Source: Candidatus Dadabacteria bacterium (GTDB lineage Bacteria; Desulfobacterota_D; UBA1144; Nemesobacterales; CSP1-2). From it: a stretch of DNA of 26,284 bases. Both the position numbers and the translations under genes were made by a program. Each line of letters opens with the position of its first letter. The first letter of the stretch is position 1. This document shows positions 1 through 20,411 of this stretch, one piece after another. The stretch spans positions 2,300 through 28,583 of the forward strand of contig PSLL01000033.1 of assembly GCA_040289575.1 (NCBI GenBank), read 5' to 3'. A model generated the notes under the pieces. The model was given only the letters and a program-made list of their open reading frames with translations, ran no database searches and was not told where the DNA came from.

Positions 1-752
1 CGAAAGAGGTCATTATCGGGATTCCTCAAGAGCTTCTTTGCGCCTTCTGGGCTCTTTTCATAATCGTATCCTCTTACAATAACAACGGGAACACCCTCCG
101 TCTTTCCCATAACGAGTCCTGCCGCCGCTGAAATCTCATCTGCTATAGCAATGACTGTTGCGTGAAGGTCGTAACCCTTTGAATCCTCTTTCCCCCTGTA
201 ATCCTTGAGGGGATTTATCCCATAGCATCCAATTGCAATCTGGACAAGTCCCTCCCTCCAAGGTCTTCCCACCGTATCCGTTATTATAACCGACACATCA
301 AGGCCGAGTTCATTTCTGAATCCCTCTGCAAGCCCCCTTGCAGATTGGTCGGGATTATCGGGAAGAAGGGTCACCTCTTCTCCCCCGCTTACATTCGACA
401 TATCCACACCGGCATTGGCACAAACTATCCCCTTTGTATTCTCCACTATAAGTCTACCCCTATCCATTTTCACTATTCTTTGGGATTCTCTAAGTATTAT
501 TTCCACAAATCGAGGGTCTTTGTCAAGCAGTTTTGATACCGCTATGGAGAAATGAGAAGGGGAAACATCATTAACCCTTACAATCCGTCCCTCCGACTTT
601 GAAACTACCTTCTGGGCAAAAACAATAATGTCTTTATCTTGAATTGATATATCTTGATTAAATGCGGCATCGATCACCATCTTTACCAAGTTATCTCCGG
701 GCTTAATCTCAGGAATTCCTGAAATGGGTATGATAGATATAACATCTGGCAT
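1..752 (-). CDS. cofE: Coenzyme F420-0:L-glutamate ligase; stop codon lies just outside the window
   Basis: Absent from the ORF track because it runs off the edge. Manual translation from ATG at 752 gives MPDVISIIPISGIPEIKPGDNL...QKVVSKSEGR...VCANAGVDMSN...DTVGRPWREG...AIADEISAAAGLVMGK...DLFR, which are CofE motifs. Adjacent to cofD. Confidence 0.93.
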   Translation of the reverse strand, partial: MPDVISIIPISGIPEIKPGDNLVKMVIDAAFNQDISIQDKDIIVFAQKVVSKSEGRIVRVNDVSPSHFSIAVSKLLDKDPRFVEIILRESQRIVKMDRGRLIVENTKGIVCANAGVDMSNVSGGEEVTLLPDNPDQSARGLAEGFRNELGLDVSVIITDTVGRPWREGLVQIAIGCYGINPLKDYRGKEDSKGYDLHATVIAIADEISAAAGLVMGKTEGVPVVIVRGYDYEKSPEGAKKLLRNPDNDLF

Positions 753-884
753 TTTTATGTTCTAAAGACGACTAGTCTTATCTAAACATCACTATTATAC
801 CCTATCCTTCTCCTCGGAAACCCCAGGGTTTAAAAAGTAAGAGCTTCCTAGCAAAATCAAAGGTCTGTCTCTCACAATTAGATC

Positions 885-1817
885 CTAATTATCAAAAAGC
901 TCCAAAACCCTCTGTGCGAGCCTACGGGCTTTTTCATCATTTGACATTACCGTATCGGCAACTAGGGGCTTTATTCCGATTGACCTTATTCGATCTGTCT
1001 CAAGGGCATCCTTTTCATCAATCACAATCTTATCTAAAAAATCCTTATAAAGCCTAGCTACTGCGGCCGATGACACCTCCAAGCCTAATCCGCGCATTAG
1101 CCTGTCTGCGGGGCCCTTTAATGGCACACCGCCTACAAGTGGGCTTATTGCAACGACCTTAGTTTTTGCTCTCTGAAGCGTCTCTCTAATCCCCTGAACC
1201 GCAAGTATTGGACCAATGCTTATAATAGGATTACTTGGGCAAATTATTATCCCCCTAGCTTCCTCTACTGCCTGAACAACTCCAGGGGCGGGTTTTGCCT
1301 TTTCTATCCCTTTTATGGATATTTCTTTTACCTTGGGGTTCATTCTCCTCTTAATCAGATACTCCTGAAAGTGCATTTCTCCCTCATCGGCTATTATCCA
1401 TGTCTCTACATCATCATCGGTCATAGGAAGAATTTTTATATTATTGATTCGGAAGGCTTTGGCTATCCTGGAGGCGATCTCAGAGGGAGGGAGTCCGATA
1501 CTTCTTAAATGAGTCCGGTATATGTGGGTCGCAAAATCTCGGTCTCCAATATTGAACCAGGTTTCGATGCCAAATCTCTCAAGCGACTTGAGACAGTGGA
1601 ATGAATCTCCTCTAATCCCCCAGCCCTTTTCCCTATCCACAACCCCTGAGAGCCAGTATATAATCGTATCAACATCCGGGGATATTCTTAGTCCAGATAT
1701 TTGTATATCATCTCCGGTATTAACTATCACAGTAAGTGATTCATTTCGGAGAATTTGGGAGAGGCCCTTTAGAAACTTAGCGGCTCCAACCCCTCCGCCA
1801 AGGGCTGTAATCATCAC
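885..1817 (-). CDS. cofD: 2-phospho-L-lactate transferase (F420 biosynthesis)
   Basis: GGGVGAAKFL, VNTGDD, SPDVDT, WFNIGDRD, HFQEY, PSNPIISIGPIL and KGPAD motifs. Start is GTG 1817 or ATG 1814. Confidence 0.95.
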   Translation of the reverse strand: MMITALGGGVGAAKFLKGLSQILRNESLTVIVNTGDDIQISGLRISPDVDTIIYWLSGVVDREKGWGIRGDSFHCLKSLERFGIETWFNIGDRDFATHIYRTHLRSIGLPPSEIASRIAKAFRINNIKILPMTDDDVETWIIADEGEMHFQEYLIKRRMNPKVKEISIKGIEKAKPAPGVVQAVEEARGIIICPSNPIISIGPILAVQGIRETLQRAKTKVVAISPLVGGVPLKGPADRLMRGLGLEVSSAAVARLYKDFLDKIVIDEKDALETDRIRSIGIKPLVADTVMSNDEKARRLAQRVLELFDN

Positions 1818-2366: not shown

Positions 2367-2516
2367 GGTATTCCTCCGTTTTTTGGATTTTTGTGTTTAA
2401 ACTCTATTACTTAAGAAAGGTTGCTATTGTCGAGAAAATTTCTCTATTTCACATTAATTCGGAATAAACTTTCTGAAAATGTTAACTCTAGATTGAGAAA
2501 GCGGGTACCGTCAAAC

Positions 2517-2708
2517 CTAAATCTTTAGAATATCGTTCTTTATAAACTTTTTATACCAGACATCAAATGTGCCTTTGTCCGCAAAATGGATTTCAAAGGG
2601 AGCGGCAATATCCCCTATTTCTCTATCTGCAACTATTAACATTTGAGAAACCTCTTTTCCGAGAAACTCAGTAGGAAAGTACCTTGAAGTGATATAAGCA
2701 GATTCTAT
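2517..2708 (-). pseudogene. Relic of a HEPN/minimal-nucleotidyltransferase (MNT) toxin-antitoxin pair
   Basis: Stop-to-stop frame reads IESAYITSRYFPTEFLGKEVSQML-IVADREIGDIAAPFEIHFADKGTFDVWYKKFIKNDILKI*. AYITSRY resembles a HEPN C-terminus and APFEIH...WYKKFI resembles an MNT C-terminus. No start codon for the HEPN part. Confidence 0.55.
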
Positions 2709-2808
2709 TTAGAAAATAGTAGGAGCGCACACACGCACATGTAGAGTCATCATACATGGGTAATTCCAGAACAATTTAGATTAGAATCAACTAAGAATCA
2801 ATCTCATT

Positions 2809-2849
2809 AAAAGCTACCTTGCCCGCCTTTTATGGAAATGGTAGCTTTT
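2809..2849 (+). promoter_or_regulatory. Probable sigma70 promoter for aroA bracketed by a 10-bp inverted repeat
   Basis: TTGCCC(2819-2824)-17 bp-TAGCTT(2842-2847) with TG extension; AAAAGCTACC (2809-2818) / GGTAGCTTTT (2840-2849); ATG lies 8 nt after the -10 with no SD. Confidence 0.45.
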
Positions 2850-2855
2850 TAGCCT

Positions 2856-4148
2856 ATGTCTAAGGAAGTTATTAAAGGCGGCTTTCCTTTAAGAGGAGAA
2901 TTTACTCCTCCCGGCGACAAATCCATCTCACATAGAGCAATTATTATCGGGTCTCTTGCGAAAGGCACGACTCATATCAAGGGTTTTCTCTTAAGCGACG
3001 ATACGCTGTCGAGTGCAAATGCCATGGGGATGCTCGGCATTCCGATTGAGATTCAAGATGGTAATGTCGAGATAAAAGGAAAAGGGCTTTTTGGGCTGAG
3101 TGAACCGGGGGATTTCATTGATGCGGGAAACTCGGGGACTACGGCAAGGCTGCTTATTGGACTCCTGAGCGCGCAGAGATTCTTCTCCGCAATAACCGGG
3201 GATAAATACTTGAGAGTGAGACCCATGGATAGGGTTGTAAAGCCCCTGACGATGATGGGAGGGAAAATCTGGGGAAGAGACGAAGGCAAAAGGCTTCCCA
3301 TTGCCATTCAGGGCGCAAAATTATCCGCCATCAAGTATCAGTCGCCAGTATCAAGCGCACAGGTAAAATCCGCCATCCTTCTTGCCGGACTCTATGCAGA
3401 GGGAGAAACAGAGGTTATAGAGCCTGTCCCTACAAGAGACCACACAGAGAGAATGCTTTCATATCTAGGTGTGGATGTTATAAAAAACGGGACGGGCGTT
3501 AGAATTAAAAACGCAGGGGAGTTTAAAGGCGTAGAGGTCTCGGTCCCGGCCGATATTTCTTCGGCGGCGTTTTTTATTGTTGCCGCCCTCATTAACCCCG
3601 GCTCTGAAATTCTAATTAAGAACGTGGGAATAAACCCCTACAGAACAGGCATTATAGAGATTCTTAGAGAAATGGGAGGCGATATTGAAATACTCAATAA
3701 AAGAGAATCGGTGGGCGAGCCTGTGGGGGATATATTAGTCAGATCAAGCGTATTGAGGTCAGTCCAAATAAAGGGGGATATGATTCCAAAGGCAATTGAC
3801 GAGATTCCCGTAATCTCCGTCGCGGCGTGCTTTGCAGAAGGAGAAACGGTGATAAAAGATGCGAAAGAGCTCAGGGTAAAAGAGACCGACCGGATTCGGG
3901 CAATGACGACAGAGTTAAGAAAACTCGGTGCCCAAATTGAAGAACTCGATGACGGAATGACAATCATCGGTAAAGAGAACCTAAAGGGCGCGATGTGCTC
4001 AACCTGGGGGGATCATAGGATCGCAATGGCCATCGCCGTTGCGGGGAGCCGAGCCGAGGGTGTTACAGAGATTGAAGGTACTGAATGTGTATCTGTATCC
4101 TTTCATGGATTTTTTGATGTGATGAAAAAGCTCAAGAGCGAAAAATAA
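2856..4148 (+). CDS. aroA: 3-phosphoshikimate 1-carboxyvinyltransferase (EPSP synthase)
   Basis: PGDKSISHRA, GNSGTT, RPM, SAQVKSA, RDHTERML, ELRVKETDRI and DHRIAM motifs. Confidence 0.98.
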   Translation: MSKEVIKGGFPLRGEFTPPGDKSISHRAIIIGSLAKGTTHIKGFLLSDDTLSSANAMGMLGIPIEIQDGNVEIKGKGLFGLSEPGDFIDAGNSGTTARLLIGLLSAQRFFSAITGDKYLRVRPMDRVVKPLTMMGGKIWGRDEGKRLPIAIQGAKLSAIKYQSPVSSAQVKSAILLAGLYAEGETEVIEPVPTRDHTERMLSYLGVDVIKNGTGVRIKNAGEFKGVEVSVPADISSAAFFIVAALINPGSEILIKNVGINPYRTGIIEILREMGGDIEILNKRESVGEPVGDILVRSSVLRSVQIKGDMIPKAIDEIPVISVAACFAEGETVIKDAKELRVKETDRIRAMTTELRKLGAQIEELDDGMTIIGKENLKGAMCSTWGDHRIAMAIAVAGSRAEGVTEIEGTECVSVSFHGFFDVMKKLKSEK

Positions 4149-10267: not shown

Positions 10268-10996
10268 ATGCTAAGGAGAATTTACACCACCTTTACCTTT
10301 TCTCTATTTGGGTTTTTTAAAGCGTCCTTTTTTATTTCCCTACTCTACCTTTTCATCTTTTTGGTTATGAAATCCGAGCATGTATTGTACGTAGAGAGTA
10401 TCAAAACACTGAGCGTCCTAAGTAGTCCCGTAATAAGAGCACAGAATCGAGAACTCATTTACCCAGATACTAAAGAGGTCAAAATCAGCCTCGAGGACTT
10501 GATAAAAGAAACCGATATCCTTAAATACGTACTCAAGTTCTCCAGCCAATTATCCTACTCTGATGCCCTTAGACTCTCTAAGCTCATAAAAGAAGAATGC
10601 GAAAACTATGGACTCGATCCCTTTCTTATACTAGCTGTAATTAAGGTTGAAAGCGAATTCTCCCCTAAAGCCATATCTCCTACAGGTGCGATAGGGCTTA
10701 TGCAGATTACACCTGAGACTGCAGAATTTATAGCGGGAGAATTGGGGGTCTCTATTGATGGAGCCAAATCCCTTTACAATCCATTAATCAATGTTAGGTT
10801 TGGAATCTACTATATATCTTTTCTAATCAATCGCTTTAAAACAGTTGAATGGGCGCTTGCCGCCTACAATGCCGGACCAAACAGTTTCTCAAATACTCAG
10901 GAGAATTTTGGAAAACGGCTTCCGGTCTATGTAAAGAAAGTGATTAGTTTGAAAAATTGGCTTGAAGCGAGAAGAATAGCAGCAGAAGAGAGTTAA
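10268..10996 (+). CDS. Membrane-anchored lytic transglycosylase (SLT domain)
   Basis: N-terminal TM; LILAVIKVESEF (catalytic Glu), GAIGLMQI and ALAAYNAG motifs; AGGAGG SD. Confidence 0.93.
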   Translation: MLRRIYTTFTFSLFGFFKASFFISLLYLFIFLVMKSEHVLYVESIKTLSVLSSPVIRAQNRELIYPDTKEVKISLEDLIKETDILKYVLKFSSQLSYSDALRLSKLIKEECENYGLDPFLILAVIKVESEFSPKAISPTGAIGLMQITPETAEFIAGELGVSIDGAKSLYNPLINVRFGIYYISFLINRFKTVEWALAAYNAGPNSFSNTQENFGKRLPVYVKKVISLKNWLEARRIAAEES

Positions 10997-11019: not shown

Positions 11020-12834
11020 TTATTCATGTCCCCTGGAGCGAGACAATTGCGCACGCTTCCGGTCAAGTGCCATCTTGAAGACGCGAAGCGTGTTTAATTC
11101 GATAATATTCTTTCCCCGTGTCATATTTTGACCATGCCTTCTGACCAACAATGTAACATCTTCTATTCGTTTAATCTTAATGTTTAATTCTTTAGCACGG
11201 TTAAACCAGTCGTGGTCTTCACCAAATATGAGTGTATTATCGAAAAGCCCTACTTTTGTAAAAACCGATTTTCGATAAACACCCGCTCCTATGTAATATC
11301 GGAAGGATTCCTTTGGATTTCCGATGTATTCGTATTTGTTATTTTGGGGATTCATTTTCATCAGTTGCGCGTAACCATGGATCACTTCAATTTCGGGATC
11401 ACATAATAACTCACCAATTAGAAAATTTAAATTATTATCAGGCCAAAGATCGTCAACGTCCAAAAAAGCAATAAACTCGCCCGAAGCATCTTTGATTCCA
11501 CGATTTCGTGCAGAGGCCGGCCCTCCGTTTTCTTGTTTAAAATAACGAATATCACATGGAAGTTGCAGAATTATCTCTTCCGTTTTGTCTGTTGAGCCAT
11601 CATCCACAATGATCAGTTCAAGAGCGGGATAATTTTGAGAAAGGACGTTTTCCACAGCTTCATTGATGAAACGCTCTCCGTTAAGAACAGGAATTATAAC
11701 ACTGACTAGTGGCTTTTTACTGGAGTCAACAGTATTATCATGACCATGAAAATCAGTGTGATGGGTCAACCGATAATTTGGTGACCCTTTTAGAAAATCC
11801 AAAATTGCCAATGGAATCTTTTTCAAATCTCCCCCCAGTTCAAGAGTATAACCAGGTAAAGTTGAAGACAACCGACAGATAAAATCGTGTGTGTGACGGC
11901 CGACATATGGCAGTTGAGACATTGTGGTGAACGAAGTGACACGCTGAATTTTCCAGCTCGGCTCAGGCATAAGCCTACTCCCATCCAGATTAACAACCTG
12001 GGGTATCAAAATAGCTTTTAATGGCATCGCCGGAGCGATTTGTTTTCCGAATTGTGGATAGAGAAACATGACTGCTTTTTCCCGATCCAACCTTTGGGGA
12101 TTTTTTATCAATTTGGAGAATTCAGGAAAATTTACCATATGATCCACATTTAATTTTGCGGTGCAGTATAAGCTGTATACAAGTGGCTCCGGTTCCAGAC
12201 GAACAATAAGGTAGTCATCTGCAAGATAATACAGGCCTGCCTGTAGGCAGGATAAAGCGGTAGTGGATTTACCAATGCCACCCTTCCCGGTAATCAGCAC
12301 CGCCCCTTCTTCCGTTCCAATTGCTGCTGCGTGGAGAAGTTGGCATCCATTCTTCTCCATCCACCAGTGGAATAGTGTACGCAGAGGGGAAGCATGTACC
12401 CAATACGGTAATGTCTCGGCTTTCTGAACCCAGTAAATACCGGTTTTTGTTAAATGATCCATAAGATTAACCGAACACTCAATCCAGTGAAATGCGGTCT
12501 TAATGTGACTACTGTTAAACCCCCATATATCTCCCCTGTCCGTAAAACTCTCCCTATTACAAGGAGGAGGAACCATATCTACAGACGTAGAATCACTATC
12601 CCAAATGCAAAGCGTGAGGTCGGGAAGATTAACCTCTGGTATGCGGAGATGTTCCAGAGCCGGAGTGAGATGCGAAACCAGATTTTCTCCTGCGAATATC
12701 AGGCGAACGGTTGTTCCACCTATTTTATAGAAATGATGGAACTCCCCTGCGGATTCCTTTGCCTTCAGAAATCTTTTGTAACACCTTTCAAAAAAGTCTA
12801 TCTGTTCGGACTCAGTTTTTTGTATTCTGTCCAT
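11020..12834 (-). CDS. HprK-related P-loop kinase fused to a C-terminal GT2 glycosyltransferase
   Basis: LLHAAAI...LITGKGGIGKSTT...YLADDY (HPr-kinase-like); from about residue 375 [27 protein letters not shown] and GEDHDW (GT-A fold GT2). Confidence 0.88.
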   Translation of the reverse strand: MDRIQKTESEQIDFFERCYKRFLKAKESAGEFHHFYKIGGTTVRLIFAGENLVSHLTPALEHLRIPEVNLPDLTLCIWDSDSTSVDMVPPPCNRESFTDRGDIWGFNSSHIKTAFHWIECSVNLMDHLTKTGIYWVQKAETLPYWVHASPLRTLFHWWMEKNGCQLLHAAAIGTEEGAVLITGKGGIGKSTTALSCLQAGLYYLADDYLIVRLEPEPLVYSLYCTAKLNVDHMVNFPEFSKLIKNPQRLDREKAVMFLYPQFGKQIAPAMPLKAILIPQVVNLDGSRLMPEPSWKIQRVTSFTTMSQLPYVGRHTHDFICRLSSTLPGYTLELGGDLKKIPLAILDFLKGSPNYRLTHHTDFHGHDNTVDSSKKPLVSVIIPVLNGERFINEAVENVLSQNYPALELIIVDDGSTDKTEEIILQLPCDIRYFKQENGGPASARNRGIKDASGEFIAFLDVDDLWPDNNLNFLIGELLCDPEIEVIHGYAQLMKMNPQNNKYEYIGNPKESFRYYIGAGVYRKSVFTKVGLFDNTLIFGEDHDWFNRAKELNIKIKRIEDVTLLVRRHGQNMTRGKNIIELNTLRVFKMALDRKRAQLSRSRGHE

Positions 12835-12981
12835 TGATCATGAAACCCATTCATATCAATCAACACAAACAAACTCGAAAAAAATTTAATTGATCCGGTT
12901 TAAAAGCATTGATCAGTTAAAACTACCACCTAAGAATAGGGTTTTTTACCTCCATCTATAATTCGCAAGGCATATGCGCTT

Positions 12982-14690
12982 CTATGCCACAACTGTGACA
13001 GGTAAATAGGGCGTTAGAACCCCATTTTCTAATTGGTAGACTTCATCAGCATGGGAGACTATAGACATATCATGGCTAATTATCAAAACCGCCGGGCAAT
13101 CGTCCAAGTCGGTGAGGTTATTCATTAACTGTCTTACTGCGGCTCTATCGAGATGGTTTGTTGGTTCATCAAGGATGAGCAGCTTGGGACAGCGAAGGAG
13201 GGCACGGGCGATTGCTATGCGCTGACACTCACCGCCCGATAGCAGAACTCCGTCTTCTCCTACTTGTGTATCGTATCCTTCGGGCAGTTGTTGGATAAAT
13301 TCATCGGCTAGAGCAAGCCTGGAAGCACGAATTATTTGCTGCCTTTCAAGAATCGGTGCTCCATACCCAATATTTTCAAGAATCGTTCCAGAAAACAGCG
13401 TGGGATTCTGCATTACAACTCCAATAGAACGTCGCAAGTGCGCAATGTCCAACTCCTCGTATGGTACTTTATCAGCGTAAAGATGGCCATCACATGGACG
13501 ATAAAAACCCAAAATAAGCTTAATGATGGTGCTCTTGCCTGCACCATTTGGTCCGATGATTGCCAAGGTAGAATCTGGATTAACGACGAGATTGAGATTC
13601 CGGAGTATAGATTGATCATCATAACTAAATGAAACGGACTCAAGAGAAAGAGAGCCTTTAAACTGTATCTTTTTTTTGCCACGATACGGCTCAGTCTCTT
13701 CAGTTTGCACCAAATTATACAAAGTAACCACAGATTCATTTCCAGCAACAATATCGGTAATTGAAGAAGTTATATTGTTCAATTGACTATAGAGGAAACC
13801 AGCCGCCACATAAAAAGATAGTAATTCCCCAATGGTCATAGAACTCCTCGCTATGGTGCCCCCCCAACTATAATAATAAGGATCCCAGAGATTCCAGTCA
13901 GAATTTGTTGAATCTGACCATTAATGGCATATATATAAGCCATCCTTTTGGTAGTGTTCTGAAGCCTTTCTATATTTTTAGTCTGACGTTCAATCTCTGC
14001 CCGTTCAGTCGACTGAATTTTGGTCAATTCCATGTGACGTAACACAAAAAGTATTCCTTTACTGAACACCTCGAAAGCTCGCTGAAAGACACGTACCCTT
14101 TCCTTGACCATAACACCGATATACCTATTTGTTAGAAAAACCACCGGAAAGATTGAACCCATCACCAAAAAGAGGGTCCAATTAAAATAAAACAAAACGA
14201 AGCACAGCCCCAAACTGGTAAAAAGCGATGGTAGGAGCTTCGATACAAGGGCATCACTCACGTTACTGAGCCTTTCAGTATCCTGAACGATCCTTGCGTG
14301 CAGTGTTTTCTGATCGACTCCGGTATGAAAAGCCCGGGAGAAATCGTAGAGCTTTCTTAAAATATCCACACGCAAATTAAAGATGGCTGTTTGGATGATA
14401 TTGATATTTACCGCACGCAACCCCAGGGAAATTCCGGAGTTTGCAAGTCGAAATGCGAAAATGCCTAGCCCAATGATTATAAGGAGATTAACATCCTTTT
14501 GAGGTATCACCTTATCAAATGCAAAACGAACAAGGAAAAGGGTGGGTAGAATTAGCAATGATTGGGCGGCCGAGCCAACGGCGTTTAATAGGAGAAGCCT
14601 GTACTGGCCTTGGTAAAACTTAATGAAATAGCGCCACGCGGGCAAATAAAAAAAAGACTTGTGTGATTCCTGACCGTTAGATTTATTCAT
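12982..14690 (-). pseudogene. ABC exporter (TMD+NBD) split by a frameshift at a G7 tract
   Basis: TMD ORF 14690-13851 and NBD ORF 13839-12982 (GPNGAGKST, LSGGECQR, LILDEPT) are in different frames. One extra G in the tract at 13859-13865 gives IIIVGGGTIARSSMTIGELLSF, a continuous exporter. Could be a sequencing error. Confidence 0.85.
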
Positions 14691-14693
14691 AAC

Positions 14694-15854
14694 TCAGCTT
14701 TTAGTTCCATCAGTAATCATCTTCGATAACAGCTTTTTATTCGTCCTTCTAATACCAGCTGATAAAATCAAAAATAAAAGTTGACGTAAGTTCCTCGCGT
14801 TAAATCGATATTGAAAAAATTTTGGAAATTCAACTACTGATGGTAATAATCCCGTACCATTAGTTAAACGTAGATACTCTATAAGGTAGAGAGGAAATCC
14901 ACCCAGAAGTGCATTTTCTTGGCTATTCATAATATAACGGTATTCAAAACGTTCAACCGGCGATACCGGAATATCGTTGACCTCAGCCATAACCGAACTT
15001 GGTATACGCGCTTGAAATTTATCCTTCAAATAATTCAACGCTCTTTTTAGTCTCAATCCCACCCGGTGCGTTTTTGCCTGTTCGATTAATCGCCTCCAAT
15101 CAATCTCTAAATCCGAGTAATTTATAACCGTCATAGCATCGGCAATCCAACGGATGGATGGTTCCGGATTCCATCTAACTCCATGAATAATGATATGTAA
15201 AAGTGTATCAACTGGGTTTAGGGCAGAAGTAGAAACGCCGCATACCGCCGTAGGTACGGAACCTTCCCAAAAATCCCTGTCAGAATCCTCCCGGCAGGAC
15301 TCGAATAAAAGATGCCAATGGAGATCGAATTCCTTCCCGGATTGGTTTTTGAACTCTGTGGAATGCCGATAACGTAGATCTTTCTCTATTGACTTGGTCG
15401 TTGACATCCAACCTGCTTTCCTAAGCAAATCAATGGCTGATGAAGCCTGCGAGGTAGGAACGAGGATGTCAATATCTGCCATAGGGCGAACACCATAGTT
15501 CTTGTAATAGAGTAATGTCAATGCGGTACCTTTAAGTACCATGGTTTTTATGCCGGCATTGTGAAGGTAACGCAGAATTTCGCTCATATCATAAAATAAT
15601 TTCTGATTCTCATACCATACTAATCGGTAGACTCCTTTTAGTCTGTTCATTAAAGGATCTCTCACTCCATGATGTTGTAAGTTCTTATACAGTAGCGGTA
15701 GCAACCGAAACGATCCTCTATCCATATGACCCTCAAAATCAGTAATACTTTTCCACTTCTCCCAGGCTTCAATTGCATCACTACCTTCTAAAAGTGCCGC
15801 CTGAAGAAGCAACTCTTGGTCTCTTGTCGCAAAAAAACCCTCACGCCATTCCAT
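14694..15854 (-). CDS. Nucleotidyltransferase, NTP_transf_5-like (family found in lasso/PqqD-associated clusters)
   Basis: VLKGTAL...YGVRPMADIDILV, FDLHW, LLHIIIHG and RWIAD motifs. Confidence 0.88.
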   Translation of the reverse strand: MEWREGFFATRDQELLLQAALLEGSDAIEAWEKWKSITDFEGHMDRGSFRLLPLLYKNLQHHGVRDPLMNRLKGVYRLVWYENQKLFYDMSEILRYLHNAGIKTMVLKGTALTLLYYKNYGVRPMADIDILVPTSQASSAIDLLRKAGWMSTTKSIEKDLRYRHSTEFKNQSGKEFDLHWHLLFESCREDSDRDFWEGSVPTAVCGVSTSALNPVDTLLHIIIHGVRWNPEPSIRWIADAMTVINYSDLEIDWRRLIEQAKTHRVGLRLKRALNYLKDKFQARIPSSVMAEVNDIPVSPVERFEYRYIMNSQENALLGGFPLYLIEYLRLTNGTGLLPSVVEFPKFFQYRFNARNLRQLLFLILSAGIRRTNKKLLSKMITDGTKS

Positions 15855-15897
15855 TTGCAGTTCTCCAAAACTTTTAGTGATTTTTCAACTCAGATCC

Positions 15898-16598
15898 CTA
15901 TTCATATTGGTTCCTCACTCTACGGCGGCGATCAAGAGAGGCTTTCAAGATGCGTATGTAGTCCGTTTGAGATTTACGCTCACGGATAACGGTATTCGTG
16001 TTATGTAATCGTCTTTTCAAGACGACCTCAGGCATCATAAGACTTTTCAAATCCCGTTCCACTGCTTTTAAATACCAGTCAATAAATTCTCCCACTTGCC
16101 ACCTGGTTTCAAATGGACCCACACGAAGAAAAGCGTTTCGTCTAATGAGCATTGCGCCAGTAACATATCCCAGCATCAATTCATCAGGGCAGTTTATTTT
16201 TTTTGCTATACCCTCATCCAGCTCCAGACTAATAAACTGCCTCACGTGTCCGAATACTATGTCCAAATCGGGATAATTTTCAAGAATAGCCATCTGACGC
16301 GCTAGTTTATCTTCCACCCACAGATCGTCCGCATCGAGAAAAGCAAGGAATTTTCCTTGAGATAAATCTATCCCCCGATTTCGAGCGGCACCAATACCAC
16401 CATGGGACCGGAAACAATATCGCACAGAATCAACCCCCCCCTGGCTATATCTGCACTCCCATCCGTTGAACCATCGTCTACCACAACCACCTCGATTGGG
16501 CGATAAGTTTGGGCCAATACGCTTTCAATGGCCTCAGCCAGATACTTCTCACAGTTGTATACAGGTATAATCACACTCACCAGAAATTTATTTGTCAT
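15898..16598 (-). pseudogene. GT2 glycosyltransferase split by a frameshift at a G8 tract
   Basis: N-part (VSVIIPVYN...VDDGSTD) and C-part (GAARNRG, FLDADD, GEFIDW) are in different frames. The junction is the C8 run at 16434-16441; G9 or G6 restores the frame. Confidence 0.85.
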
Positions 16599-16852
16599 TA
16601 TCTTTATTTTTGATACTGTTTACCTTCGTTTTCTGATTGCGTTTACGGTCAGCGGAAAGGGAATAGGAATATTCATCCGCCTCAAGAAATGCAATGACCT
16701 CCCCTTGAGCAGCTGTGATACCAACATTACTGGCCACCGCGACGCCTTGATTAGATTGGTAAATATAATGAACCTCTTTAAAAGATCGGGCTATATTACC
16801 GCTGTTATCTGTAGAGCCGTCATCATGCTTTAATTGTAGATTGTAGCCTCAT
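16588..16852 (-). pseudogene. Internally deleted GT2 remnant
   Basis: Frame 16827->16588 reads HDDGSTDNSGNIARSFKEVHYIYQSNQGVAVASNVGITAAQGEVIAFLEADE-YSYSLSADRKRNQK...*. No in-frame start; the upstream ATG 16852 (MRLQSTIKA*) is out of frame. Confidence 0.8.
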
Positions 16853-16885
16853 ATCTATCAACGGCCTCTCTTTTTTGCAAAATCG

Positions 16886-17578
16886 TTACCTTTCGGTATT
16901 ACTTTCTATCTGCCGTTTGATTGACTGTCGCATTGCTCGCAGGAGTTGACGATCATTGTCTTTTGCATTTAACGACGCATTAGAAGCGTGAACCCGCTTA
17001 TGTACCAATACTTCAGGTATAATCGCCATCGGTATTTTTTTATCTTTGGCTCTGGCAAACCAATCAACATCCTCGGCTGTCAAATATGAAGTATCGAAAT
17101 TTCCAATCAAATCAAATAATGATTTGCGTGCGACCAAAGTCTCCATTATGTAGCCTACACATTCTCTTTCCAATAGTTCTTTCCTGAATCCCAGTGGTAT
17201 AGACTGTCCGGGTTCCAAAAAATGCCTAACCTTAGTAACTGTATACTGAATCAGCGGATTGCGAACCATATAACCTACTTGGGTACTCAATTTATGTGGC
17301 TCCCATATATCATCATGAGAAATAAAGGCAATAAACTCACCCCTTGAAGATTCTACACCAAGATTATAAGCGTCCGCAATTCCTCGATTAACTTGTCTGA
17401 CAAACCGTACAATTGGAAATGATTTGGCAATCCGTTCGGTACCGTCAACCGAATTACCATCGACTACAATGATCTCCAAGGGTCGCTTATCAGACGCTAA
17501 GACGCTATTTATCGCTGAAGCAATGAAACGCTCCCCATTTTTAACAGCGAGAATAACAGATATTGTTGGCTCATTCAT
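16886..17578 (-). CDS. GT2 glycosyltransferase
   Basis: ISVILAVKNG, VDGNSVD, AYNLG, FISHDD and AEDVDW motifs; likely start ATG 17578. Confidence 0.9.
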   Translation of the reverse strand: MNEPTISVILAVKNGERFIASAINSVLASDKRPLEIIVVDGNSVDGTERIAKSFPIVRFVRQVNRGIADAYNLGVESSRGEFIAFISHDDIWEPHKLSTQVGYMVRNPLIQYTVTKVRHFLEPGQSIPLGFRKELLERECVGYIMETLVARKSLFDLIGNFDTSYLTAEDVDWFARAKDKKIPMAIIPEVLVHKRVHASNASLNAKDNDRQLLRAMRQSIKRQIESNTER

Positions 17579-17607
17579 GGGCAGCCCATTTCTCTTTATC
17601 AGAGGGT

Positions 17608-18375
17608 CTATCGTGGGGTTTTTGTAAATTCCACACCCGCTCTCCACAATTCATCAAATTCAAACCAGTTAGAAAGCTTTCTTATATTTTCTTGTTTGCG
17701 CCTGCGATCCAAAGATTTCTTAAGAGCCTTAAACATGTATTTCTTGCCTAGATTTTCATTGTGGCTCATATTCTGTGCGTGCACACGGTAATAAAGCGTA
17801 ATCTCCTTCAAAATCGTGATCGAAACATCTAATTCTCTAGCGCGCAAAAACCAATCATGATCTTCCCAATGTAGAAGCGATTCATCAAACATTCCAACCC
17901 TATCGAATACAGATTTTTTAAACAAGCCGCTTCCTAGATGAACATTGGCTAATATATTTTCCGGCCCCCGGAATTTGATATTAATATCCGGAGCGCCCGG
18001 CATCTTTATATACTGAATACGGCCCATAACAACATCCAATGCCGGGTCTTCAATCAAGCGATTTAGTTGAATATTCAACTTGTTATCTGGCCAAAGATCG
18101 TCGGCATCCAAGAAACCTATGATTTCCCCACGCGCCATTTTAAGACCGGTATTTCGGGCTGAGGCCGGGCCGCTATTGCTTTGATAAATATAGCGTATGT
18201 CTTCGCCCATGCTCGCAGCTACTTTAGCCGTATCATCCGTTGATCCATCATCAACGATAATGACTTCCAAGGGGTTATATCTCTGATAGAGGATGCTTTC
18301 TACTGCCTCGCATAGAAACCTCGCCCCATTGTAAACGGGCACAATAACGCTAATAAAGAGTCTTGTAAATGTCAT
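17608..18375 (-). CDS. GT2 glycosyltransferase
   Basis: ISVIVPVYNG, VDDGSTD, ASARNTG, FLDADD and EDHDW motifs; likely start ATG 18375, since the longer ORF overlaps the upstream gene. Confidence 0.92.
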   Translation of the reverse strand: MTFTRLFISVIVPVYNGARFLCEAVESILYQRYNPLEVIIVDDGSTDDTAKVAASMGEDIRYIYQSNSGPASARNTGLKMARGEIIGFLDADDLWPDNKLNIQLNRLIEDPALDVVMGRIQYIKMPGAPDINIKFRGPENILANVHLGSGLFKKSVFDRVGMFDESLLHWEDHDWFLRARELDVSITILKEITLYYRVHAQNMSHNENLGKKYMFKALKKSLDRRRKQENIRKLSNWFEFDELWRAGVEFTKTPR

Positions 18376-18409
18376 TGTAGATAGATTGAACGCGCTTTTT
18401 TGAATATAC

Positions 18410-18865
18410 CTATTCCTCTTCCGGCAGCTTCGGCGTGGGCCAGCCCGTTTCATCAACCTCATGTATAGGATCTAATAAAAGTAAATCCTGCATATCGGTA
18501 TATTTATTCAAAACCGGGGCTTCAAATATAGGCTTTTTCTCGCTCAGCCCGGTTTCAATAAGACCATTGATTCCTTCTGAGCTTCTCCCTTTATCATCAA
18601 CAACAAGGCCCTCTTCCTGTAGCTCCGATATAAATCTATTTATATCATTTTCTATATCAACGTGAGCACCTACATATTGATGTTTAATTATCGCAATAAT
18701 ATCGCCTATAGTGGCACCAATTTCGATAAATCGCCAGACATCGGCCCCAACTCCAATTAAACTGTAATAATTACCATTATCCAGGTTAATTATGACGGTT
18801 TCACCGTCAATAGTCTCATGAGAAATCTTAGGGCTATTGATTCTAAAACGATCATTCGGACTCAT
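18410..18865 (-). CDS. PqqD/RRE-domain protein with C-terminal leader/core-like extension
   Basis: Residues ~7-89 (ETIDGETVIINLDNGNYYSL..VGADVW...FISELQEEGLV) fit the PqqD beta3-alpha3 pattern, followed by a linker and FEAPVLNKYTDMQDLLLLDPIHEVDETGWPTPKLPEEE. AAGGAG SD. Confidence 0.88.
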   Translation of the reverse strand: MSPNDRFRINSPKISHETIDGETVIINLDNGNYYSLIGVGADVWRFIEIGATIGDIIAIIKHQYVGAHVDIENDINRFISELQEEGLVVDDKGRSSEGINGLIETGLSEKKPIFEAPVLNKYTDMQDLLLLDPIHEVDETGWPTPKLPEEE

Positions 18866-19400
18866 CTTTAACTCCTTTCTTGGATGTTTTTATATACACC
18901 AACCGACAACAGAAACAGCCTCATTATAGAACACAAAGTCTCTCCTTCCAAAAAAATCTTGAATGCGACTAACATCAAAACTCATTGCACTATTATCGTG
19001 ACACTATCTAACAAGTCAACCCTAAAGAGGCACCGATTCAACTGTCGGATCAGACTTTAAGTGACATACTTCGAGGTTTAAATTACTGGGGCAAGTATGC
19101 ACCCTATAAGATTTCTCATGTGGCTCCGCCACCTTGCCCACATTTTACGGATCGTAATATATTGATTCAATTGGACTTTAGACCAGTATTCTTGATAATA
19201 AATGTCCAATTTAAACAGTTATATAAGACTTTGGGCTGTAATTAAAAATCAAAATCTAGATAAAGAAAATAAAACTATTCAACCTTGGATTGATAAATTA
19301 GAGTTAGAACAGAGGGGTTGATTGTTGGGTTTATCTAGTTCGATGAAGCGACCACAACCATTATGACATCTAAAGAGATAAGATAATTGGATAATATATT

Positions 19401-20411
19401 ATGGATATGAGTAATAGCGGCGATCTCATTCATCAATATGGCCTCATTTTCATTTTTGGAAATGTTCTGGTTGAACAACTGGGGCTGCCGATTCCTTCAA
19501 TTCCTGTACTTCTTTTGGCCGGTGCCGCCTCTGCAAGAGGTGAAATCCCTTTGATTGGGGCTTTTACTTTGGGAGTTATTGCCAATCTCATTGCCGATTC
19601 TCTCTGGTACGAAATCGGCAGAAAAAAAGGGAGTAAAGTTCTTTCCATAGCCTGCAGAATTTCCTTAAATCCCGACTCCTGTGTGCGGCAGACAGAATCG
19701 TTCTTGGAACGGTGGGGATTTCCTTCCCTGATTATAGCCAAATTCATTCCCGGTTTCTCGATGATAGCACCGCCGACGGTGGGCTCGATGAAAAAACCGC
19801 GTTATTTCTTCTGGTTTTTTGATAGCCTAGGTAGCGGACTTTGGATAGGTATTGCCCTTATTAGTGGATTTATCTTTTCAGATACAATTGAAAGGGTTAC
19901 AAGGGGATCATTCCGCTTTGGTCAGCTGGCAGCAGCAATTGTTGTTGTAGTTCTGGTTTTATTTATTATTGTCAAGTATTTTCAACGCCAGCGCTTTTAT
20001 CAATCTCTCAATATGCCCCGCATCTCGGTAGATGAATTAAAGAAATTAATTAGTGAGGGGCACGAGCCTCTTATACTAGATGTCCGATCTGAGGTGGCTA
20101 AATCAATCGACCTCGCTGGCATTCCAGGCGCCCGACCTGTTTCACTAGAAAATTTGTCCAACCTCACTGATCTTCCGCATGACCGGGAGATCATCACCTA
20201 CTGCAATTGCCCCAATGAGGCTTCGGCCGCCCTCGCGGCGCGCACACTCATAAATCAGGGATTTCGAAAAGTCCGCCCCCTTAAGGGTGGTCTTGATGCT
20301 TGGCGAGAAGCCAGATACCCAATTGAGGATCTGGAAACCGGTTCTATCGCTCCGAGAGAATCACCTATTGTAATCCTATCAACCAGAGAAAGTAAAGAAA
20401 AAGAGGAATAA
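19401..20411 (+). CDS. DedA/VTT membrane protein fused to a rhodanese domain
   Basis: EQLGLPIPS, CRISLNPDSCV and AKFIPG (DedA); ILDVRS, YCNCPNEASAA and LKGGLDAW (rhodanese). Confidence 0.92.
   Translation: MDMSNSGDLIHQYGLIFIFGNVLVEQLGLPIPSIPVLLLAGAASARGEIPLIGAFTLGVIANLIADSLWYEIGRKKGSKVLSIACRISLNPDSCVRQTESFLERWGFPSLIIAKFIPGFSMIAPPTVGSMKKPRYFFWFFDSLGSGLWIGIALISGFIFSDTIERVTRGSFRFGQLAAAIVVVVLVLFIIVKYFQRQRFYQSLNMPRISVDELKKLISEGHEPLILDVRSEVAKSIDLAGIPGARPVSLENLSNLTDLPHDREIITYCNCPNEASAALAARTLINQGFRKVRPLKGGLDAWREARYPIEDLETGSIAPRESPIVILSTRESKEKEE

Follow-up and report, generated by a model that had tools for sequence, protein, structure and literature searches.

A tailed RiPP recognition element encoded with a kinase, a nucleotidyltransferase and glycosyltransferases: a candidate peptide phospho-glycosylation pathway in Candidatus Dadabacteria and other phyla

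Among described systems, the closest to the gene set considered here are the clusters for linear polyphosphorylated peptides (LPPs) of Bacillota, lppA-K-B-S-D-N (Popov et al., Nat Commun 2026; PMC13381572), a cyclase-less type of cluster in which the kinase LppK polyphosphorylates Ser3 of the precursor LppA. In pseudomycoidin, PsmK adds one to three phosphates to the C-terminal Ser, and the nucleotidyltransferase-like PsmN is needed for one or two hexoses (+162 Da) on the phosphoserine (PMC6993621). The kinase BsfK phosphorylates Ser3 of its precursor and is greatly enhanced by BsfB1 (PMC10368454), a recognition element (RRE) for ribosomally synthesized, post-translationally modified peptides (RiPPs). 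Discrete lasso and LPP RREs bind the motif [Y/W]xxPx[L/V/I/F/A] (PMC13381572, PMC10368454), and the leader motif YxxPxL occupies positions -17 to -12 (PMC10368454). The present study concerns a stretch of 26,284 nucleotides, hereafter the window, from a Candidatus Dadabacteria genome (assembly GCA_040289575.1, contig PSLL01000033.1, positions 2,300 to 28,583 of the forward strand), in which an RRE protein with a conserved C-terminal tail is encoded together with a kinase-like protein, a nucleotidyltransferase, several family 2 glycosyltransferases (GT2s) and an ATP-binding cassette (ABC) exporter. We put forward, at even confidence, that this operon encodes a self-contained peptide phospho-glycosylation pathway akin to lasso tailoring and LPP systems, for which the tail of its own RRE protein would serve as substrate or scaffold. 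Literature searches found no paper on this cassette, which is a widespread but unstudied gene set.

The operon and its family

The open reading frames (ORFs) and Pfam matches define a single co-oriented, tightly packed operon on the minus strand, running from 18865 to 11020 of the window, with the following features.

18410..18865, minus strand: PqqD/RRE protein with C-terminal tail, 151 aa, first gene of the operon (Pfam PqqD, E 4.5e-13, residues 22-88)
18428..18535, minus strand: conserved tail of the PqqD/RRE protein, residues 111-146 (alignment of 117 sequences)
17608..18375, minus strand: glycosyltransferase GT2_a, ~256 aa (Glycos_transf_2, E 1.1e-35)
16886..17647, minus strand: glycosyltransferase GT2_b (Glycos_transf_2, E 4.3e-25)
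16672..16824, minus strand: GT2 fragment, ~52 aa (tblastn with GT2_c homologues, 42-48% identity, residues 38-111)
15898..16598, minus strand: glycosyltransferase GT2_c, two ORFs, 16598-16368 and 16425-15898 (N and C halves of Glycos_transf_2, E 5.7e-19 and 6.7e-11)
14694..15854, minus strand: PF14907 (NTP_transf_5) nucleotidyltransferase, 386 aa (Pfam E 1.2e-43)
12982..14690, minus strand: MsbA/TAP-like ABC exporter, ORFs 14690-13851 (ABC_membrane, E 1.3e-19) and 13839-12982 (ABC_tran, E 7.4e-33)
11740..12834, minus strand: kinase-like domain, residues 1-365 of a 604-aa fusion (12834-11020), PEPCK/HprK-fold P-loop phosphotransferase
11020..11739, minus strand: GT2 domain, residues 366-604 of the fusion (Glycos_transf_2, E 8.2e-30, residues 378-478)
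18923..19019, minus strand: promoter-like sites 5' of the PqqD gene, consensus matches only (sigma-70-like, 10/12 positions)

All eight products named in a sequence-only reading of this stretch are encoded on the minus strand where that reading had placed them. Its gene list is right in content and is amended in that the two ORFs of GT2_c, like those of the ABC exporter, make up a single frameshifted gene, and in that a further GT2 fragment lies at 16672-16824.

The tailed RRE family counts 2678 database proteins at E <= 0.001. The best 120 of them are 144-223 aa long, cover 77-100% of the query (at least 91% in all but one) and share 49-77% identity with it, the query itself excepted. When one genome per species was scanned, 282 species genomes contained a relative of the tailed protein; the best 80 of these loci span about nine phyla by record title and come from Nitrospirota, Thermodesulfobacteriota/'Deltaproteobacteria', Chloroflexota, Cyanobacteriota, Ignavibacteria, Acidobacteriota, Binatia, Verrucomicrobia and Gammaproteobacteria, among others. 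For 36 of the 80 loci at least 8 kb of sequence is available on both sides, and gene neighbourhoods were tallied in these full-context loci, with the other 44 excluded. A kinase-like gene is present in 34/36, at least one GT2 (usually 2-5) in 32/36, a nucleotidyltransferase scoring > 100 bits in 25/36 and an ABC exporter scoring > 100 bits in 12/36. The arrangement is not due to chance, as related loci have this gene set around their tailed PqqD genes too. The sequence-only reading had proposed asking whether homologues keep the neighbourhood of kinase, nucleotidyltransferase, GT2 and ABC genes without a cyclase; they do so at the frequencies just given, with no cyclase in the ORFs scanned.

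Within the lineage the distribution is patchy, since only one of 40 relatives of this genome, belonging to the same genus, has a full-length tailed copy. Other PqqD matches among the 40 end in or before the linker that precedes the tail, except for one in a same-genus genome (G002:C348:6883-7239, locus L096), which covers profile positions 10-126 in a 166-aa open frame; as it extends into the beginning of the tail motif, this match could represent a tailed copy that has diverged or been truncated.

The accessory genes in relatives are sugar-related, with GT4 glycosyltransferases in 21 loci and NAD-dependent epimerases in 12, and sulfotransferases, short-chain dehydrogenases and methyltransferases are further members. 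Fusions of tetratricopeptide repeats (TPR) with glycosyltransferases occur in several relatives (L030, L045, L046 and L057), and radical SAM/SPASM proteins in 7 related loci. Among the accessory families scanned, which do not include every ORF, there is a single Wzx-type protein (Polysacc_synt, L077), a single Wzt_C (L071), and neither a priming phosphoglycosyl transferase nor Wzy. A gene for phosphoenolpyruvate (PEP) mutase (E 2.4e-31; L018:12282-13202) lies inside a Thermodesulfovibrionales copy of the cassette, where it adjoins an AMP-binding enzyme and hints at phosphonate decoration in that lineage. Two Smithella loci (L026:1690-3209 and L034:4378-6003) possess an extra pair upstream, consisting of a distant PF14907-like protein and a tail-less PqqD protein of 89 aa.

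The recognition element, its tail and the enzymes

An alignment of 117 of the best 120 database matches divides the PqqD/RRE protein into a PqqD domain (residues 1-90), a variable linker (91-110) and a conserved tail. The consensus of the tail is F114-x-x-P117-x-L119, then Y122-[TS]123-D-M-Q-D-L-L-L-L-D-P-I-H-E-V-D-E-x-G-W-P. Its leader-like motif reads FxxPxLNKY[TS]DMQD, with F-E-A-P-V-L in the window protein, and FxxPxL is followed by ~25 near-invariant residues. Residues L128, L129, L131, D132, P133, G141, W142 and P143 are each present in 117/117 sequences, and F114, H135 and D138 in 116/117; the counts are 115/117 for Y122, 114/117 for L119 and for D124, 113/117 for P117 and for M125, and 112/117 for Q126. 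Position 123 is T or S in 112/117 (T 80, S 32, N 3, A 2). Since the tail is near-invariant across phyla, its sequence points to a conserved cellular role rather than to an antibiotic.

By sequence and predicted fold, the PqqD domain is an RRE of the lasso B1 type. A profile of the family, run against PDB sequences, matched TbiB1 (E 7.4e-17), the paeninodin-type PbaB1 (9x90_B, 5.1e-14), LppB (9x8z_B, 1.3e-8) and TfuB1 (3.4e-6). The AlphaFold2 model of the protein (predicted local distance difference test, pLDDT, 80.8) has TbiB1 and the 6jx3 B1 protein as its best Foldseek matches, with template modelling (TM) scores of 0.86-0.90 by target length against TbiB1 and 6JX3. Residues 111-120 of the tail are confidently placed (mean pLDDT 92), the linker has low confidence (52-59), and the tail after residue 120 falls to ~70 and then, over 131-151, to ~56. 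The leader-like stretch would thus occupy the leader groove of the RRE, to judge from pLDDT and DSSP secondary structure only. The fusion of an RRE with a peptide, as the sequence-only reading had described this protein, fits three findings: FxxPxL is placed at pLDDT ~92, the tail is near-invariant in 117 sequences, and no separate precursor was found. No NCBIfam model reaches its cut-off for the RRE protein, here or in relatives, and the Protein Atlas gives only 'PqqD family' names.

The kinase-like domain forms the N-terminal part of the 604-aa fusion, on which Hpr_kinase_C scores 24.9 bits, below its cut-off of 33.3 bits. This weak Pfam call is nevertheless backed by a profile search of PDB sequences and by predicted structure. 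With a profile of 35 sequences, the five best PDB matches are all HprK/P (E 1.4e-5 to 1.4e-3). Foldseek aligns both domains of the AlphaFold2 model of residues 1-365 (pLDDT 94) best with ATP-dependent PEP carboxykinases (TMq 0.53-0.57), and matches to HprK/P catalytic domains begin at rank 36. PEP carboxykinase and HprK/P belong to one P-loop fold class. Invariant in 38 kinase sequences are H168, G183, G186, G188, K189, S190, D206 and D207, with the same spacing as H148, G163, K169, S170, D186 and D187 of BsfK, the importance of which was shown by mutagenesis (PMC10368454). At the level of sequence, the domain keeps the full HprK/BsfK catalytic set. No NCBIfam model reaches its cut-off for the kinase, here or in relatives. 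The fused GT2 carries VDDGSTD and DVDD motifs; fusion of kinase and GT2 is seen in 13/36 full-context loci, the two being separate genes in the rest. A predicted complex of the kinase-like domain (1-365) with the PqqD-tail protein scored 0.20 and 0.18 against a mark of 0.32, and no contacts are given.

The nucleotidyltransferase matches PF14907 with 149.9 bits (cut-off 31.2) and is a single copy in the genome. K108, R123 and D129 are conserved in at least 95% of 43 sequences, and D129 is part of a D127-I-D129 motif. No NCBIfam model reaches its cut-off, here or in relatives, and no sequence relative was found in the PDB at E <= 1. The sequence-only reading ascribes PsmN to PF14907 as well; the pseudomycoidin paper itself speaks only of 'uncharacterized nucleotidyltransferases'.

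As for the separate glycosyltransferases, the ORF of GT2_a as listed begins at 18462, and an ATG at 18375 agrees with the 256-aa homologue in the same-genus locus L014; GT2_a has VDDGSTD and DADD motifs, and GT2s of the same type occur in 22/36 full-context loci. The ORF of GT2_b opens with a GTG at 17647, its likely start being Met24 at ~17578; it has HDD where DxD is expected, and its type occurs in 18/36. By best-hit typing, the GT2_c type is the one most often kept in relatives (24/36 loci). Judged from their sequences, the nucleotidyltransferase and three GT2s keep their metal-binding motifs. In relatives the ABC exporter is a single protein of 560-580 aa; the ABC protein shows partial likeness to MsbA, PglK, HepA and glucan exporters, all under the respective NCBIfam cut-offs.

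What the enzymes may act on

Pfam and genome profile searches found no gene for Asn_synthase (cyclase), Transglut_core3 (peptidase), radical SAM or YcaO proteins in the operon. In the whole genome, Asn_synthase (PF00733) has 10 matches, none on the operon's contig (C56), Transglut_core3 (PF13471) matches only on contigs C76 and C47, not at the operon, and the archaeal-type signal peptidase model TIGR02228 has 0 matches at a genome completeness of 95.35%. In relatives, Asn_synthase was found in 0/77 ORFs of 470-760 aa (E <= 1e-8), drawn from 146 unmatched ORFs with lengths of 420 aa or more in the related loci, and signal peptidase or Transglut_core3 in 0/117 co-oriented ORFs of 110-330 aa (E <= 1e-6), drawn from 221 such ORFs on both strands. 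All four absences had been claimed by the sequence-only reading for the operon, and those of cyclase and peptidase are borne out in the relatives' scanned ORFs as well.

No separate conserved precursor was found either among 4136 clustered small ORFs from 80 loci, the clusters being off-frame readings of conserved genes in close relatives, and 5' of the PqqD gene (18866-19400) there are only unconserved ORFs of 21-58 aa. As candidates for stand-alone tail peptides, 18 short database proteins with the tail motif were considered and set aside; they look like cut genes, because 12 start with L or V and 8 keep the last RRE helix. Elsewhere in the genome, contig C76 (4542 bases) encodes a tail-less PqqD protein (E 2.9e-17), a transglutaminase-like protein of the B2 type (E 1.5e-11) and an ABC ATPase (genes at 393-692, 1974-2468 and 2488-3495), a set resembling part of a lasso-type cluster; this 4.5-kb contig has no cyclase gene. 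As C76 has its own tail-less PqqD and B2-like genes and no demonstrable link to C56, it was rejected as a source of the missing cyclase or precursor.

In the reading that we favour, without placing it above even confidence, the RRE would hold its own tail in cis and present the exposed near-invariant stretch Y122-[TS]123-D-M-Q-D-L-L-L-L-D-P-I-H-E-V-D...G-W-P to the kinase, which would phosphorylate the tail, most likely at T/S123. By analogy with PsmN, the PF14907 enzyme would then allow an initial hexose to be attached to the phosphate. The GT2 paralogues, including the one fused to the kinase, would extend a short conserved oligosaccharide, and the MsbA-like pump would export the product or a released part of it. 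This proposal, in which the tail as substrate and its phosphorylation, glycosylation and export are assigned by analogy, is suggested because the set is kept across phyla without cyclase, peptidase or separate precursor, because the leader-like FxxPxL is placed on a lasso-B1-type RRE by the model, and because in described systems an RRE enhances the kinase (BsfK), LppK acts on Ser3, and PsmN is needed for hexose addition (PMC10368454, PMC13381572, PMC6993621). The sequence-only reading had considered the peptide 'possibly nucleotidylated'; for this we see no precedent, the sole experimental result being the PsmN-dependent hexose on phosphoserine (PMC6993621).

Several points weigh against the proposal. 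Each chemical step in it is one that we infer, and the tail is without an invariant Ser or Thr, position 123 also being N or A in five sequences. The acceptor Ser3 of LppA and BsfA lies 18-19 residues past the motif Tyr, which in the tail corresponds to D132/P133; LppK left S3T and S3Y variants unphosphorylated (PMC13381572), and BsfK accepted Thr but not Tyr (PMC10368454). Deletion of LppN was without visible effect in a heterologous host (PMC13381572), and the chemistry of PsmN was left unsettled by the authors (PMC6993621). A folded protein of 151 aa would be unusual as the cargo of an MsbA-like half-transporter, and neither the operon nor the relatives' scanned ORFs include a peptidase that could release a product. 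The pump and the nucleotidyltransferase are not universal (12/36 and 25/36 at > 100 bits), the many epimerases, sulfotransferases and other glycosyltransferases in relatives fit a glycan pathway equally well, and the kinase-like domain as a whole resembles PEP carboxykinase, a small-molecule enzyme.

That no hydroxyl residue is fully conserved within the invariant half of the tail would also suit a different role, in which the tail is a built-in pseudo-leader or docking peptide that autoinhibits the groove or recruits the kinase and GT2s through D-L-L-L-L-D-P-I-H-E-V-D...G-W-P, and another target is modified, be it an unlinked peptide or protein or the enzymes' own products. We think this possible and rather doubtful. 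The tail is modelled partly as short helical turns, at middling confidence, much like a short linear binding motif, and the TPR-glycosyltransferase fusions of relatives could bind another protein. RiPP cores usually vary and this tail does not; against this, conserved peptide-derived scaffolds and cofactor precursors exist, for example PqqA and MftA. No conserved small ORF is found in or beside the 80 loci, however, hardly any stand-alone peptides carry the motif (18, mostly cut genes), and a groove filled in cis would force a separate leader to compete with a tethered ligand.

A more specific and tentative form of the self-substrate proposal, to which we give less credence than to the general one, is that the RRE-tail protein is a dedicated carrier. 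A conserved phosphate-linked oligosaccharide would be built on the tethered, self-presented tail without a lipid carrier, and the invariant tail with its glycan would then be released or exported as a conserved glycoconjugate. This would amount to glycan synthesis primed by a protein and directed by a RiPP recognition element, with a signal, a cofactor or a surface primer as product in many phyla.

The sugar-related surroundings of the cassette raise the question whether a peptide is involved at all. The kinase-like protein and the PF14907 enzyme might instead act on a sugar or small molecule, the oligosaccharide made by the GT2s being flipped or exported by the MsbA/PglK-like pump and the RRE serving as regulator or assembly factor. 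A kinase followed by a nucleotidyltransferase is the classical route to nucleoside diphosphate sugars, the best match of the whole kinase-like domain is PEP carboxykinase (TMq 0.53-0.57), and the exporter shows its sub-cut-off similarity to MsbA, PglK, HepA and glucan exporters. Further genes in relatives encode GT4s (21 loci), NAD-dependent epimerases (12 loci), sulfotransferases, short-chain dehydrogenases and, in L018, the PEP mutase. That PsmN makes a substrate for a host glycosyltransferase was left open by the authors (PMC6993621), and LPP and paeninodin clusters are often situated in capsule loci (PMC13381572). We nevertheless consider a glycan or glycolipid pathway unlikely. Among the families scanned there is no priming phosphoglycosyl transferase, Wzy or Wza-type protein and only one of Wzx type; a lasso-B1-type RRE with its own leader motif, the tightest-linked partner of the kinase (34/36), would be left unexplained; and the characterised homologous kinases PsmK, BsfK and LppK act on peptides (PMC6993621, PMC10368454, PMC13381572).

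Finally, the frame breaks could suggest the decayed remnant of a lasso cluster that has lost cyclase, B2 protein and precursor and has no function of its own. In tblastn comparisons with intact homologues, GT2_c is one gene with a frameshift in a run of eight G (16434-16441; frame -3 to -2 near 16440), and the ABC exporter, comprising transmembrane and nucleotide-binding domains, is one gene with a frameshift in a run of seven G (13859-13865). Both operon frameshifts thus sit in G homopolymers, one in the exporter gene and one in a glycosyltransferase gene, and such breaks could reflect slipped-strand phase variation or plain assembly error. Over 12900-16700 the sequence was compared with contigs from four public runs of soil metagenomes, belonging to two studies; such contigs are evidence of presence, not of variants being absent. 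Two deep contigs, X1 (depth 26) and X2 (depth 17), which stem from two runs in the two studies, have one extra base (8 G) at the ABC homopolymer. This yields an open frame of 570 codons, so that the ABC break reflects either faulty assembly or variation by strain or phase. Both contigs leave the GT2_c frame unrepaired, and one further base missing at 16197 breaks it more. X1, X2 and a third contig, X3, have 228 extra bases between 16651 and 16652, beside the GT2 fragment; at this point the genome bin has either undergone a deletion or collapsed a repeat of paralogues. This copy of the operon is partly eroded, and because GT2_c is broken, the pathway is probably impaired in this genome. The frameshifted GT2_c and ABC genes, the GT2 fragment and the separate PqqD, transglutaminase-like and ABC fragment on C76 are what a remnant would leave. 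For the family as a whole, though, we regard a functionless remnant as highly improbable. The cyclase-less set with its near-invariant tail is kept in about nine phyla, which requires that purifying selection act on the set in its present form, two independent public assemblies show the ABC frame open, and the kinase, the nucleotidyltransferase and three GT2 genes are intact. Conservation across phyla thus largely refutes the remnant explanation.

Housekeeping genes flank the operon, with aroA, cmk, ispH, rpsA, sppA and genes for a HIT protein and LapA upstream; a lytic transglycosylase gene lies at 10268-10996. The sigma-70-like matches 5' of the PqqD gene are two (19019-18992 and 18951-18923), each agreeing at 10/12 positions, and the signal is weak, the region having 31 sites against 23.8 +/- 5.2 in shuffles. 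Divergent from the operon, a gene at 19401-20411 on the plus strand codes for a DedA/VTT membrane domain fused to rhodanese, for which the rhodanese-related (seleno)protein model NF041203 scores 77.6 bits (cut-off 115). It was rejected as a member of the system, as it adjoins the operon only in the same-genus genome L014 and matches elsewhere are weak. At the start of the window (3-1817, minus strand) are genes for CofE (F420-0:gamma-glutamyl ligase) and CofD of coenzyme F420 synthesis.

If the tail is the substrate, as we propose, the phosphorylation chemistry of LPPs, paeninodin and pseudomycoidin would reach beyond Bacillota to nine phyla or more, the PF14907 enzyme would be placed in a natural glycosyltransferase setting where its chemistry could be elucidated, and the family would be an example of cis-presentation by an RRE. 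RiPP genome mining seeks a separate precursor gene, so a pathway with its substrate fused to the RRE is invisible to such mining.

Comparison with known systems

Several described systems share parts of the cassette. The HPr kinase/phosphorylase superfamily is recognized by its His, GxxGxGKS P-loop and DD metal site, all of which are present (H168, G183-S190, D206-D207). The NCBIfam cassettes TIGR04352, TIGR04355, TIGR04248 and TIGR04302 combine, as here, a PqqD protein with an HprK-related P-loop protein. Scores for these models are far below their cut-offs, however (HprK_rel_B 33.5 against 200; HprK_rel_A 34.2 against 200, in a relative; ScmD 24.4 against 100; the GeoRSP PqqD model 17.9 against 100), which indicates that the cassette is not a member of these systems. 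Polysaccharide loci of the Wzx/Wzy or ABC-dependent type are characterized by a priming transferase together with flippase and polymerase or Wzm/Wzt; a family scan of the window proteins found no priming phosphoglycosyl transferase, flippase/polymerase or Wzm/Wzt.

The lasso B1 proteins TbiB1 (5V1V/5V1U) and TfuB1 (6JX3) are the best matches of RRE residues 1-90 and bind a YxxPxL leader. They are tail-less proteins of 84-99 aa with a separate peptide ligand, whereas the cassette RRE carries its own tail, and of the components of lasso clusters the cassette has the B1-type RRE and neither cyclase C nor B2 peptidase. Closer to it are the phosphorylated lasso sets, namely paeninodin, PsmK/PsmN (PMC6993621) and BsfK/BsfB1/BsfN (PMC10368454), which have the same B1-type RRE, HprK-like kinase, nucleotidyltransferase and ABC pump, and whose kinases share the H, P-loop and DD set and its spacing with the cassette kinase. 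The likeness of kinase and nucleotidyltransferase to the paeninodin/pseudomycoidin tailoring pair had already been pointed out in the sequence-only reading and stands. Unlike these sets, the cassette has no cyclase C, B2 peptidase or separate precursor, so that no lasso would be formed, and in this lineage the kinase is fused to a GT2 and accompanied by three to five GT2 paralogues.

In LPP clusters, a discrete lasso-type RRE occurs together with an HprK-like kinase, an uncharacterised NTP transferase and a pump of the MsbA-like kind, and all four are found in the operon; neither system has a macrolactam cyclase, and both have sugar-related gene surroundings. The LPP leader motif, [Y/W]xxPx[L/V/I/F/A] (PMC13381572), is similar to the FxxPxL of the tail, which starts with Phe. 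LPP clusters encode an SpI-like (SipW-type) leader peptidase, LppS, which the cassette is without, here and in the relatives' scanned ORFs. LppA is a separate precursor with the motif YxxPxVLxHQxIxFETxxS and a variable C-terminus, whereas the cassette's motif is fused to the RRE and followed by near-invariant sequence. GT2s belong to the conserved core of the cassette, whereas Glycos_transf_2 has a count of 19 in the LPP co-occurrence table, and LPPs are called restricted to Bacillota (PMC13381572), whereas members of the tailed family occur in Nitrospirota, Thermodesulfobacteriota, Chloroflexota, Cyanobacteriota, Ignavibacteria and others. Three spreadsheets of the LPP paper contain neither cyanobacterial nor Nitrospira entries, a check outside of which fall its PDF supplements and one large spreadsheet. 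The LPP study could not have found the cassette, because it was seeded on the signal peptidase (PMC13381572).

The interpretation given in the sequence-only reading is thus partly supported. Its remark that this is not a characterised RiPP class has been overtaken by the description of LPPs in 2026 (PMC13381572), from which the cassette differs in two defining features. Since the peptidase and the separate precursor that define LPPs are both lacking, the cassette is not a member of that class; it would work like an LPP or paeninodin tailoring system.

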